Assembly (NCBI GenBank): GCA_022709865.1
Contig: JAKLIA010000001.1
Span: forward strand, 37,593-101,592
DNA length: 64,000 nucleotides
Direction: 5' to 3'
Source: Patescibacteria group bacterium
GTDB lineage: Bacteria > Patescibacteriota > Minisyncoccia > Portnoybacterales > GWB1-42-6
How positions within the stretch are numbered: position 1 is the stretch's first letter; each line of letters opens with the position of its first letter. Shown here in pieces: positions 42,001-48,000 of this stretch. Made by a program: the position numbers.

Positions 42001-45000
42001 GGGATGGAAGATCATAGGGGGCAGATAATTTATGGTTTGATTAAGATAATGAAAGCTAAAAAAACGTCTTATTTTATTTTGGAAAATGTAAAGGGCCTAG
42101 AGAATCATGAGGGCGGTAAAACTTTAAAAATTATCAAGGAAGAATTAAATGAGGCGGGTTATAAGGTCTATTCACGAGTTTTAAATAGTCTTGATTATGG
42201 TGTTCCTCAGATGCGGGAAAGAATTTATTTCGTTGGGATCAGAAACGATTTAGTAAAAAAGAATAAAGAGTTTTGCTGGCCAAAATCTGTGAGTATCCCC
42301 AAGATTAAGAATTATTTAATTGATGATGAAGAGATTGAGTTTAATGAAAAAAAAGCAGCTTATGAAACATTCTTAAAATACCTAAACAATAAATATAATA
42401 AGGGTTTATTCGATATTAAAAAAATGCTAGAAGAAGATTATTTAGTTCTAGATACAAGACAATCAGACCTGAGGCTATACAGGAATAAAGTGCCAACATT
42501 AAGAACTGGACGGCATGGTATTTTATATGTTAGAAATAAAAAATTTAGAAGACTATCTGGTTTTGAATCGTTGCTTTTGCAGGGATTTCCAAAAAAACTT
42601 AGCGAAAAAACAAAAGGTAAAATTGCAGATGTTTGTTTATTGAGTCAAGCAGGAAATGCTATGACAGTAAATACAATTGAAGCGATTGGTAAAAAATTAC
42701 TAAACTATATAAACGCATAAAATATGAATAAAAAAGAATTGATAAAATTAGGTTCTAAAACCGCAAAAGGCGGTTTTAGAAACGAAAAAGACGTTATTAT
42801 TCGCTTCAATAATTGGGAAAAAGACGAAGTGGCTAAAAAATGGCTCCATGCTATGGGTTATAATGTTTCTGATATTGAATATGTAAAAGCAGCAAAAATT
42901 CGCGGACAATACAAAGCCGATATTCAAGTTAGAGTGCGAATTACCATCAAATTAAAGTCACAAGAAGATTTACAAAATTTACAAGTAAAACTCGTTAGCA
43001 ACCCGCAAGGATTTAATCAAATTGATAAAAGGCGGGTTGATAAATATGTTGAGCTTTGGAATATCCCAGAAGACATAACAAGAATTTTAAAATCTTTTAC
43101 TGGCGAAACAAAACCAGCAAGGAGCGGACTAAAAGATAGCAGAAGGGTGTTTTTGTCAGAAATAGATGAGAACGAGCAGATTAAAGTTATTGATTTTTTT
43201 GAAAAGAATAAAATTTTAGTTATTTCTGACTTATTAAAAGGCCGAGGTGAGTTTTCTGCTGATTGGATGCTTGTTATTCTGAAAATAAATAAAGAAAGTG
43301 CTTGGGTCTTAAAATCTATTAATGAAGCGATGAATGTTTTTGGAAACGGCGAAGTTAGGATCACGTCACAAGGTGGGTTAAGGATTGGCAAAATAGGTAT
43401 GCAAAGAAAGGGTGGCGACGGAGGAAGAGACACCGCAAAAATGCTTCAATTCAAAATTAATCCCGTTGAACTTTTTAAGGATTAAGTATGTCTGATATTG
43501 TTTCTAAAAAGAAAAGAAGCGAGATAATGAGGGCAGTGAGAAACAGAGACACAAAAATCGAACTTTCTTTTAGAAGAGTTCTTTGGAGCAGGGGCTTTAG
43601 GTATAGTAAAAATTCAACTAAATATTTCGGAAAACCGGATTTACTTTTAAAGAAGTATAAAACCGTAATTTTTATAGATTCTTGTTTTTGGCATGGTTGC
43701 AAGAAACATTTAAGAATGCCAGCGACGAATAAAAAATATTGGATAAATAAAATTAAAGGGAATAAAGTAAGAGATATGGAGGTTAATAGGTATTATAAAA
43801 AAATAGGCTGGAAAATTATCAGAATTTGGGAGCACGAAATAAAGAAAAAATCTGAAGAGGTTTTTATCAAAATGATTAAGCTCTCAAAAAATGGTAGATG
43901 AGGATAAAGAAATAAAAAAAAGAATTAAACAATTTCAAGCGGATATTTTTAATAAAGCAATATCTTCTCAGGAAATGGTTTGGAGGTATATTGTTTTTGA
44001 TCAGCCATTTATTTTTCGTGATAGCCAAGATTTATTTTTTGAATTTAAAAAAGAAATAGCCCGACATTATAATATCAGACCTTCTTGTGTTAATATTGCT
44101 GGTTCATCGAAGTTGGGATTTAGCATAAGTCCAGAAAAAATTTGGAAACACATAACAGCAGATTCAGACATCGACGCGGTTATAATTGATCCTTATTTAT
44201 TCGATGAATATTGGAAAAAAATACTTGAGTATTATAATCCTGACAATATCACTCCGTTGACCCAAGAAGAAAACGATAATTATAGCGAAATTCGTAAGTA
44301 TTTTTTTAAGGGACGGTTGAGGCTTGATCTGGTAAAACCAGGAATCCCTGGAATGGAAAGTTATATAGAAATAACAAAAAAAACATATAATAAATACGAC
44401 AATAGAAAGGTGAGTATAGGTTTCTTTAGAAGCGAAGATTTATTTGAACATTATCATGTTTTAAATATTAATAATATTAGAAAAAAATATGGCGAATGAC
44501 TATATAGGAAAATCGACAGATAAAAAGTTGCTTGAGCTTTTTAACGATTTAAACGATAAAAAGTTAATTTTGCGTCCCAAATTTCAAAGAAATTTAGTTT
44601 GGAATGATAGGCATAAAGAGAAATTTATTGAAACGATTTTGTTAAAATTGCCTTTTCCGGAAGTGTATTTTTGTGACGGAGATATGAATATGGAGTCAAG
44701 AGAGCTAACTAGGCATGTTGTTGATGGGCAACAAAGATTGAATGCCATTTATAATTACATAAAGGGAGACCTTAAGTGCAAAACGATTAAATCTTTTAAC
44801 GATCTTGACGAGAAGGAGCAGAGGGATTTTTTCAACTATAATGTTGTGGTAAGAGATTTGGGTGATATAGATGATGAAAGAATAAAACAAATATTTGAGA
44901 GAATAAATTCTGTGAATTATGCTTTAAATGCGACTGAAATAAGGAAGGCTCTTTATGATGGTGAATTTATTTCTGTAGCAAAAAATATTTCAGGAGATAA

Positions 45001-48000
45001 AATTTTAGAAAAAATTAATGTATTTAGCGAAAATCAATTGTCGAGAATGAAAGATATAGAATTGATATTATTAATTATGAGCACAATTGAAACAAACGGA
45101 TATTTTACCAGGGACTACGAGGTGGGAAATTTAATTTCTGGTTTAAATGATGATTATCCTAATAAAAATAAAATAAAAAGAGATATTTTAGATGTTTTCC
45201 GACTAATTATTAAATTAAATTTGCCATCCGATTCGATATGGTTTAGGCTCTCAAGCTTTTTTACCTTAACCATCGAATTGATAAAATATAAAAGCAAAGA
45301 GGGAAAGTTGTTAAGCGTAAAAGCATTAAAAAATAAGTTATTAAAATTAGAAAAAGCACTCGAAACTAATAAAAATAAAAACATAGAAACCAATGAATAT
45401 GCTAAGTATTATTATTATGTATACCAGGCAACTGCAAGTAAGGCGGCAAGAATATTCAGGGGCAAAATAGTGGAAGAAGCATTAAGGTAGCTACGTTGAC
45501 GGATGGGAAACAAAAGGCATAGGGTATCATTAGTTTTTCGTAAGATTTTAAATTATGGAATACCTAAAATTAATTCTTATCGGAATCGCGGGGGTTATTT
45601 TGGGGACTTATTTAGGTCGGTGGAGAGCGAGATATAAAAAATCAAAATTAGCAAATAAGCAAAGCCAAAAGGTCGGAGAATATTAAATAATTAAAAATAA
45701 AATTATGCAACAATTTTTAATTCAAAATCCTTGGGTTATTTATTTAGCTCTCGCTTGGACTCTTCCTTGGAAGGGATTTGCTCTGTGGAAGGCGGCCAGG
45801 AACAGCCATAAGTGGTGGTTTATTGCGCTATTGGTGATTAATTCTTTGGCGATACTGGAAATCATTTATATTTTTATTTTCAGCAAAAAGAAGCAGTTGC
45901 CTTCTGCTTAATTTATATGGGGAAAAAACAAATCTGTATGATTGCTATTTTAGCTGTGGCTATCTTAGCCATTGGCGCGTTGGTTTTTTTGAATCAAAAT
46001 AAGGCAGGGCAGGTGGCTTGCACTATGGAAGCTAAGATTTGCCCGGATGGCTCTTCGGTTGGCCGCGGCGGGCCAAAATGCGAGTTTGCGCCGTGCCCGG
46101 AAGCCAGCCCGGTGCCGTCGGGCTGGGAAACTTTTACGGATGACAAGCTGGGTGTTTCGTTCCAATATCCCGCTAGCTTCTCGACTAAATATATCCAAGC
46201 CTTTGATTGGCCTCCTAAGGTTTCGTTCCAAAATCTTCCTTTTTATTGCGCGGCGGGCGGCAGCGAAATTACCAGAGCCGGCCGGACTGAACCGCGCGTT
46301 ATTGGCAACCACATTTATTGCGTGTCGACTTTAGTTGAGGGCGCGGCCGGTAGCACTTATACCCAATACGCTTATGCTTGGGAAGCGGGCGGCCGAGAAG
46401 TAATTTTTACTTTTTCTACCCGCGCGCCGCAGTGCGCCAACTACGACGACCCCAATAAAACGGAGTGCGAGAACGAGCGGGCCGCTTTTGATATTGATAA
46501 GATTTTTAATTCCATCGCTCAAACTTTAAAGCTCAAATAGCCAACGCTAGATGATAAATAAAAGCTATTGATTATTAACAATATGCCTCTTTTGCCGTAT
46601 AAATACGCTTATCTTTTTTGTTGTCTTATCTTGGCGGTTTTTTGGCTTTTGATATTTGCCAGACGGAAAGATTTGCGCCGCGAAATGGTTTGGGCGAGCT
46701 TGGCCGGTTTGCCTTTCGGCATAATTGATTATTTTTTGGTTCCGGCCTATTGGCATCCCGAATCGCTGTTTGGCTTGATGGAAAAATACGGCGTGGGCAT
46801 TGAAAGTTTTCTTTTTCTTTTTTTGATGGCCGGCTTGGTTTCGGTGATATATGAGTTTCTGTCTAACCGAAAGACCAAAAAGATAAACGGCAGCCGCAGC
46901 CGCCATTTGCATCTGCTGCCCTTGCTGCTGGGCGTTATTTGTTTTTTTACTTTAACGTTTCTGTTTCCAAATAAGGCAATATATAATTTTATAGCCGCGG
47001 GCGCCCTTGGCGGGCTGGCGGTGGTTTGGCTGAGGCGGGATCTTTTTAAACAGGCGGCGGCCAGCGCTTTAATTTTTACTTTGTTTTATTTTGGAGTTCT
47101 TCTTTTGGTCAATCAAATCTTTAGCGGCGTGATTGCCAGTGTTTATAATTTTAAAAATATGTGCGGTATTTTAGTTTTAGGAATACCGCTTGAAGAATTG
47201 TTGGCGGCCTTTTTTGCCGGCGGGTCCTGGTCTGTTTTTTATGAATACGTTAAATCGTACCGGGAGGAGAGGCTGGGATAAAATATAAAAATATGGACCA
47301 AAAGAAAAGAGACGATCTGCTTTTGGCGATAAAGGAAGAAGTTATTGCCTGCCAAAAATGCGGGCTTTATAAAACCCGCATTTTGCCGGTGGTGGGGCAG
47401 GGAAATCACAGCGCGCAAATTATGTTCATCGGCGAAGCGCCGGGAGCGAACGAAGATAAAACCGGCGTGCCTTTTTGCGGCAGCGCCGGCCAAATATTAA
47501 ATCAACTTTTAGCCTCGGTGGGCATTAAAAGGGAAGATGTTTATATTGCCAATATTTTAAAAGACCGGCCGCCGGGAAACCGCGAACCGGCTCCGGATGA
47601 AATTAGCGCTTGCACGCCGTATCTTTTGCGGCAAATTGCGATAATTGAACCAAAAATTATCGCCACCTTGGGCAACTACGCGACTCATTTTATTTTAGAA
47701 AAGTTTGGAGTGCCAAATAGCCGCTTGGGCATCAGCCAATTGCGGGGCCAGAAGTTTGCCGTTAGCGACCCGCTTACCAAAAAACCCTATATCATTATTC
47801 CTTTGTACCACCCGGCCGTGGCTATTTATAACCGCCAGCAATTAGACACACTAAAGAACGATTTTAAAATTATCGGAGAGCAGTTGAAATAAAAACCCCT
47901 CTAAAGAGCAGCTTTTTAGCGGGGTTTTTGCTTTAAAACAGGTCAAAATAGGGCAGATTTTGAGAGGCATCATTTTGACTTTTGGGCTATTTTAAGCTAA

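Follow-up and report, generated by a model that had tools for sequence, protein, structure and literature searches.

A widespread two-gene cassette of a nucleotidyltransferase-like protein and a nuclease-less DUF262 protein, a credible candidate anti-phage system

A low-GC island in a 64,000-nucleotide stretch of a Portnoybacteria genome (contig JAKLIA010000001.1; this whole stretch is called the window below) ends with two overlapping genes, named A and B here, that most likely form a self-contained, horizontally mobile two-gene conflict module acting in anti-phage defense. Gene A (43891..44499, forward strand, 202 amino acids (aa)) encodes a protein with the signature of an MNT-like Pol-beta nucleotidyltransferase (NTase), from a family that has no curated model. 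Gene B (44489..45490, forward strand, 333 aa) encodes a nuclease-less protein in which a ParB-type DUF262 nucleoside triphosphatase (NTPase) precedes a C-terminal domain made entirely of helices. The overlap of the two is 11 nucleotides (nt) and reads ...AAA TAT GGC GAA TGA, with the ATG of B at 44489. The start of A in turn overlaps the vsr stop, the ATG of A lying 11 nt before the vsr TGA. Five genes are packed head to tail in this way, as the pair is preceded on the same strand by a C5 methylase (41731-42720; PF00145, 1.7e-72), an R.HinP1I-type endonuclease (42724-43485; PF11463, 4.7e-85) and Vsr (43488-43901; PF03852, 1.3e-28; TIGR00632, 5.7e-38), which we treat as context outside the core module. 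The GC content of the island is 0.31-0.32 (42-46 kb), compared with about 0.44 in the flanks, and because it falls below its surroundings the five-gene block looks horizontally acquired. A first-pass annotation of this DNA had described two AT-rich genes at 43891-45490, overlapping by 11 nt and appended to a restriction-modification (R-M)-Vsr operon; the coordinates, the overlap, the low GC and the profile matches directly upstream all agree with that description.

The pairing of A with B recurs elsewhere, which the first-pass annotation had set as the test of whether it is more than chance. Our survey covered 80 fetched genomic loci encoding A relatives plus three from contig look-ups, 83 in all, from Cyanobacteriota, Bacillota, Bacteroidota, Pseudomonadota, Actinomycetota, Chloroflexota, Poribacteria, Planctomycetota, Acidobacteriota and others. 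A B homologue lies directly downstream of A on the same strand, mostly overlapping it, in 80 of the 83. Of the other three loci, one ends just past A, one has an insertion sequence (IS; rve integrase) between A and B, and in one A is followed by a 314-aa open reading frame (ORF) without a Pfam match. Viral contigs in IMG/VR carry A and then B in 10/10 loci, and the pair is also found on a 6.2-kb Cronobacter plasmid and a Pseudoalteromonas replicon. Reverse look-ups that started from B (in Anoxybacillus, Flagellimonas, Nitrosopumilus and the closest metagenomic relative) found a 190-202-aa gene directly upstream in 4/4, and in three of these it was A by hidden Markov model (HMM), with E values of 1e-64 to 1e-71.

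The two genes also share a history. Pairwise identities of A and of B across loci correlate (r = 0.89), with B evolving more slowly: the median identity to the window protein is 39% for B versus 30% for A, with the higher value belonging to B at 85 of 90 loci. Clustering all flanking ORFs from 82 loci revealed no third conserved gene. One 536-aa protein is an A-B fusion, which is weak evidence because just one such sequence is known, from a 241-kb contig. The distribution of the pair is patchy and driven by horizontal transfer; at least one archaeal metagenome-assembled genome (MAG) carries it, and archaeal and bacterial copies are about 50% identical. These results show A-B to be an obligate, translationally coupled, co-inherited two-gene unit, and the pair is almost certainly a real functional unit. 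We rejected the ideas that the adjacency is due to chance or that the pair is an accessory of the R-M-Vsr operon, as about 90% of loci have no R-M genes.

Two unusual loci deserve description. The IS-interrupted locus comes from a Bryobacteraceae MAG (L056, 7953-11441), where the rve integrase (8801-9643, minus strand) separates a shortened A from B, and the B protein is 423 aa long with a C-terminal HEPN/RES-associated NTD1 domain (PF18870, 1.6e-6). On a plasmid of Aliarcobacter cryaerophilus (NZ_MK715471.1; L085, 5860-8519), the gene behind an A-family member (HMM E 2e-28) encodes a 647-aa DUF4365 protein in place of DUF262, which suggests that A-type proteins can be re-partnered. The island on this plasmid also holds PLD-like and TIR genes.

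The family of protein A is large. Clustered at 50% identity, it has 1,615 representatives at E ≤ 1e-3, or 880 when the cut-off is E ≤ 1e-10, and none of the cluster representatives found carries a precomputed Pfam domain. A itself has no match in Pfam, PADLOC, NCBIfam or PDB sequences. Among 100 diverse representatives, however, the family signature V-x-I-V-G-S-[AGS]-K-L-G-F-S ... S-D-[ILV]-D-[IV]-[AV]-[IV]-[VI] is near-invariant. The hG[GS] motif of A (VNIAGSSKLGFS; G71-S72, 44101..44106, forward strand) is conserved in 99/100 diverse relatives at G71 and in 100/100 at both S72 and G76. The putative metal-binding DxD on strand beta-2, S92-D93-I94-D95 (44164..44175, forward strand), is conserved at 99% for S92 and D93 and at 100% for D95. 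A candidate third carboxylate, D146, lies in G141-RLRL-D146 (44311..44328, forward strand), with G141 at 100%, P145 at 90% and position 146 at 84% D plus 4% E; the family consensus for 141-146 is GWIRPD, and the window copy has R142 and L145 instead of W and P. The A motifs quoted in the first-pass annotation, VNIAGSSKLG (G71 S72), DSDIDAVII (D93 D95) and RLRLDLV (D146), are thus all present.

The AlphaFold 2 (AF2) model of A has a predicted local distance difference test score (pLDDT) of 90 and a predicted template modeling score (pTM) of 0.86. It places GS directly after a strand (67-70) and opens the next strand (94-99) with DxD, with helices between the two; in this predicted structure the order of GS strand and DxD strand is the Pol-beta NTase arrangement. 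At D146, the model shows just a 2-residue strand for the candidate beta-3, and the spacing from GS to DxD is 22 residues versus 9-13 in classical cases. Scanned singly, 9/21 and 38/100 A-family members give weak NTP_transf_2 matches (best E 2.4e-4) that cover profile positions ~4-60, the GS/DxD region. Polbeta is matched by 9/100 members, and every other family recurs at most two times. Several family members bear the JGI label 'predicted nucleotidyltransferase', and the best-identity structural neighbors of A are the MNT antitoxins 5yep_A, 8xeh_E and 1no5_B. Matches of A and its profiles to PDB sequences (S4e, E 0.74; a designed TIM barrel) were spurious. A does not reach the Pfam gathering thresholds for the minimal nucleotidyltransferase families (PF01909/PF18765). 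Against a firm fold assignment, a Foldseek search with the A model against PDB gave no match below E 2.6. The structure modeling that the first-pass annotation had recommended bore out the GS/DxD arrangement. The sequence predicts A to be, very probably, an MNT-like NTase that is divergent and catalytically competent, though this assignment lies below every curated threshold.

The first-pass annotation had called A an MNT/SMODS-type minimal NTase and had proposed that A and B form a two-component nucleotide-signaling or nucleotide-modification defense system. The MNT-like part of this assignment is supported by the conserved signature and the AF2 model; the SMODS part, like a CD-NTase identity, is unsupported, since neither Pfam nor PADLOC shows any similarity of A to SMODS, CD-NTase or mCpol. 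In a signaling system, A would make a nucleotide second messenger that is bound in the DGQQR pocket of B. This idea derives solely from the co-occurrence of an NTase-like protein with a nucleotide-binding one, although the small NTases of Hailong can make signaling oligonucleotides, as mentioned in PMC13586616. A belongs to no recognizable synthase class, B lacks any effector domain on which a signal could act, and the DUF262 pockets of SspE, BrxU and GmrSD are NTP hydrolases. Nor is any ring nuclease, SAVED, CARF or transmembrane effector conserved nearby. We consider nucleotide signaling very improbable, and the original interpretation is supported in part.

Protein B is easier to place. It matches GmrSD_N/DUF262 (PF03235, 3.4e-22, residues 16-156) and has no Pfam match to the GmrSD_C/DUF1524 nuclease, in line with its initial description as a DUF262 protein that lacks DUF1524. 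In PADLOC, B scores highest with Menshen NsnA (2.2e-34, residues 14-220) and next with PD-T4-2_A (6.2e-22), and DpdB-type DGQHR proteins match weakly. Three forward-strand motifs have invariant residues in 40 relatives: motif I, FQRNLVW (QRxxxW; 44582..44602; F32, Q33, R34, L36, V37, W38); motif II, DGQQR, the NTP-binding/hydrolysis loop (44723..44737; D79, G80, Q81, Q82, R83); and motif III, FERIN (FxxxN; 44894..44908; F136, R138, I139, N140). Both B motifs that had been quoted earlier, FQRNLVW and VVDGQQRLNAIYNY, are found in the protein. The C-terminal half also has many invariant positions in the same 40 relatives, such as Y308, Y310 and T315 in Tyr/Thr/Ser clusters. In the AF2 model (pLDDT 82), the N-terminal half is alpha/beta and ParB-like and the C-terminal half is all-helical, and the best structural matches are BrxU and SspE. 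Profile matches, motifs and model together make B an NsnA-like ParB-DUF262 protein with a helical DNA-binding-type domain and no recognizable nuclease. Proteins of the NsnA type consist of ParB-DUF262 and a helical 'ParBDB'-like domain, likewise with no nuclease (PMC12065111).

The cassette resembles several known systems and belongs to none of them. GmrSD, BrxU and SspE, like B, have an N-terminal ParB-type DUF262 with QRxxxW, DGQQR and FxxxN, followed by a helical middle domain, and they share a defense-island lifestyle with the A-B cassette. They differ by having the DUF1524 His-Me nuclease, which is present neither in B nor elsewhere in the cassette, and the obligate partner in the cassette is instead a separate NTase-like protein encoded upstream. 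GmrSD membership was rejected because there is no DUF1524. Menshen (NsnA-NsnB-NsnC) contains the nuclease-less NsnA, whose PADLOC profile is the closest to B. However, it also has the NsnB ABC-ATPase (AAA_15/DUF3696) and the NsnC inPIN-RNase, whereas the A-B cassette has two genes and neither of these. PD-T4-2 is a two-gene system built on a nuclease-less DUF262 protein (PMC10952713), but its partner is a HEPN RNase, in contrast to the upstream MNT-like NTase of A-B. We rejected membership in Menshen or PD-T4-2 because NsnB/NsnC, a HEPN partner and any third conserved gene are all missing. At E ≤ 1, neither HEPN nor PD-T4-2_B matches A, and the window island has no HEPN gene.

MNT-like NTases are the protein class that classically opposes HEPN. 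A differs from HEPN-MNT modules and the minimal NTases (PF01909/PF18765) in its ~200 aa, its extra helices and its partner, which is DUF262 and not HEPN. AbiEii/MenT (DUF1814), CD-NTase/SMODS and Hailong HalB are Pol-beta-fold effectors or signal generators in defense and so offer a functional analogy for A, but no sequence or profile similarity to it was detected, and they have other partners and operon logic. AbiE/MenAT was set aside because A has no PF08843 or PADLOC AbiE match, and CBASS (cyclic oligonucleotide-based anti-phage signaling) because A has no SMODS or CD-NTase match and there is no conserved effector gene. Dazbog is set apart by PADLOC models alone, as no Dzb model (DzbA/DzbB) matched A or B at E ≤ 1. 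In operation, the cassette would come closest to a GmrSD- or Menshen-type system whose effector has been exchanged. We found no description of an NTase-DUF262, ParB-MNT or GmrSD_N-nucleotidyltransferase pair in the literature; the first-pass annotation likewise knew of no such description. None of PADLOC v2.0 (2023), Pfam (2025) and NCBIfam (2026) contains a model for A. The pair is an apparently undescribed, credible anti-phage system, although it may have been named recently, and is centered on DUF262 and built around a new and sizeable NTase-like family.

The most telling context is a prophage copy in E. coli strain 1500 (NZ_CP040269.1; L105, 3286-4880). In a P2-like prophage there, nothing but the pair separates gpA (replication endonuclease) from gpQ (portal); EcA has an HMM E value of 7e-58 and 34% identity to window A, and EcB 5e-118 and 43% identity to window B. 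The cos-proximal gpA-gpQ locus, the site of P2 old and tin, is a hotspot of anti-phage systems (PMC9122126; also PMC13586616). The supplements of Rousset 2022, in the portion accessible to us, contain other DUF262 arrangements in P2/P4 hotspots, and the E. coli 1500 accessions are not among the entries listed there. The pair is rare in E. coli (1/5,426 complete genomes), and no A homologue was found in GenBank phage records.

Other copies also sit in mobile elements or defense islands. In Anoxybacillus kestanbolensis (L086, 1-13014), the pair belongs to a dense defense island that runs from a bacteriophage exclusion (BREX) PglZ through an SNF2 helicase, an RE endonuclease, the pair itself, a SLATT_5/QueC/SMODS cluster and PC4 to a full GmrSD. 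A Bacillus copy lies inside an integrative element. In Clostridioides (L001/L002, 6810-9652), the pair is located between smpB and an R-M-like block, in an island that begins directly after smpB and has an integrase fragment downstream; smpB is the usual neighbor of the transfer-messenger RNA (tmRNA) integration site. A probable defense role of the pair is well supported by these contexts.

One could instead assign the pair to housekeeping or element maintenance, for example in partitioning a plasmid or island or in controlling replication, or view its adjacency as incidental to the R-M operon. ParB-fold proteins do work in partition, the neighbors are mostly ordinary genes, and plasmids and integrative elements carry the cassette. 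But the locus surveys exclude chance adjacency, and B is of the DUF262/GmrSD-NsnA type and not of the partition ParB type. The patchy distribution through horizontal transfer, the archaeal-bacterial identity of ~50% and the placement in the P2 defense hotspot and in defense islands also point away from maintenance. A role outside conflict is improbable.

The settings in which the cassette is found are many and unrelated. Among its 132 immediate neighbors, C5 DNA methylase is the most frequent family (5), followed by phage integrase (3); HsdR_N, Uma2, N6/N4 methylase, ResIII and transposases also recur, whereas all others occur once and include many housekeeping genes. In 8/99 related loci, the pair has a C5 methylase no more than ~3 kb away. 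The closest relative of window B sits behind a Dcm-like methylase and EcoRII, echoing the layout of methylase, R.HinP1I and Vsr in the window. A DNA-modification role akin to that of DpdA/DpdB would explain this recurrent neighborhood. B, as a ParB-like ATPase, would help A reach DNA, as DpdB does for DpdA, and A would add a nucleotide or a derived group to DNA or its ends, marking or protecting self. The weak matches of DpdB-type DGQHR proteins to B fit such a role, and a helper of this kind for a DNA-modifying enzyme has been described (PMC12839542). The recurrence beside C5-cytosine methylases or R-M genes in those 8/99 loci and in the window, with C5 methylase the commonest immediate neighbor, fits it as well. 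However, the ~90% of loci without a methylase or restriction partner include many stand-alone copies that are left unexplained, and the P2-hotspot cargo is the pair alone. Further, the cassette would be one of modification without an obvious restriction arm, and no NTase is known to modify DNA bases in this way. DNA modification has a low probability as the function of the pair.

Taking all contexts together, the pair probably has a defense or conflict role. In every characterized DUF262 system, the DUF262 part serves as a sensor of DNA or of a modification on it and, through NTP binding and hydrolysis, switches a linked effector (PMC12065111; PMC10952713). That effector varies: GmrSD, BrxU and SspE have an HNH nuclease, Menshen a predicted RNase that works through an ATPase, and PD-T4-2 has HEPN (PMC12065111; PMC10952713). 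By architectural analogy with these systems, the variable partner, A, would be the effector, and we therefore favor an arrangement with B as sensor and A as effector. B would be an NTP-driven sensor and switch that recognizes modified or foreign DNA, as DUF262 does in GmrSD, BrxU and SspE and is predicted to do in Menshen. It would control A in trans, in place of a fused His-Me nuclease. Once licensed, A would transfer a nucleotide to a target, either the 3′ end of tRNA or another RNA, as MenT and AbiEii do, or a protein, and either the infected cell or the phage would be arrested as a result. Pol-beta-fold NTases such as MenT and AbiEii are established toxins and effectors. That B senses and A executes by nucleotidyl transfer is our tentative choice, somewhat short of an even chance and made by analogy. 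The full reading, in which a DUF262 sensor licenses a new minimal NTase family and an unnamed, widespread anti-phage system confers immunity by nucleotidylylation of nucleic acid or protein and not by cleavage, has a probability of roughly 0.35.

The main rival reverses these roles. Here A would act in the manner of MNT, which keeps HEPN toxins off: A would nucleotidylylate (e.g., AMPylate) B and so hold it inactive. B would be the effector, set free when an infection inhibits or outpaces A, and would nick DNA in the ParB/Srx manner, deplete NTPs as an NTPase or clamp DNA. MNT antitoxins are, after all, the structural neighbors of A by best identity, and, as in MNT-HEPN operons, the small NTase gene precedes the partner gene. 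The faster evolution of A and the invariant Tyr/Thr residues near the C-terminus of B (Y308, Y310, T315) are compatible with such a regulator. So are the single A relative paired with a DUF4365 nuclease-like protein, the one B with an additional HEPN/RES-associated domain and the presence of the pair on a very small plasmid. Nicking ParB/Srx proteins are also documented, according to works cited in PMC12839542. Against this, nuclease-less DUF262 proteins have no known nuclease or toxic activity, and in all characterized DUF262 systems the DUF262 part is a sensor or regulator, never the killer. A is also double the size of classical MNTs and has helical additions of its own. Regulation of a toxic B by A is less likely, but it is the alternative that we take most seriously.

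DUF262 is a recurring sensor module of bacterial immunity, known from GmrSD, BrxU, SspE, Menshen, PD-T4-2 and Dazbog, and the A-B cassette, in which a single DUF262 protein is joined by a single small enzyme, is the simplest nuclease-less case. Should A prove to be an active transferase under the control of B, this would be a new effector chemistry and the first DUF262 system with a transferase effector. It would also define an NTase family of ~1,600 clusters at 50% identity and so annotate many 'hypothetical' proteins. The cassette is one candidate among many new defense systems, but it is unusually clean, widespread and mechanistically distinct. Its spread over bacterial phyla and the E. coli/P2-prophage copy in a validated hotspot make it directly testable by standard phage challenge.

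Several other features of the window are worth recording. The genes at 41731-43901 (forward strand) make up a complete HinP1I-type type II R-M system with a dedicated Vsr very-short-patch repair endonuclease, in a genome of the candidate phyla radiation (Portnoybacteria). On its 5′ side the five-gene block is flanked by argS (40116-41675), and smpB is near the island in the window too (39619-40071), with argS in between. ARAGORN found no tmRNA or tRNA beside the island that could mark an integration site, and no tmRNA in the window; a promoter and terminator scan of the island gave the same result as shuffled sequence. Downstream of B is a gene for a 68-aa DUF5652 protein (45705-45911), and between the two, at the island edge, an ORF of ~43 codons read by eye (45556-45686, forward strand) has a hydrophobic N-terminal segment (MEYLKLILIGIAGVILGTYLG...).

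Farther from the island, a 580-aa AIPR (abortive infection phage resistance) protein is encoded at 4926-6668 on the reverse strand (PF10592, 6.1e-36), in a low-GC patch (0.34 at 5-6 kb), and is likely a second defense gene in the window. A stand-alone 79-aa GIY-YIG protein (38809-39048, reverse strand; PF01541, 4.8e-18) adjoins infC/rpmI/rplT. Finally, a 238-aa Cys-rich ORF without a Pfam match (22209-22925, forward strand) forms a sharp low-GC patch (0.318) between FemAB-like (21211-22212) and Mur-ligase-like (22922-24211) genes, overlaps both by 4 nt and looks like an inserted gene.

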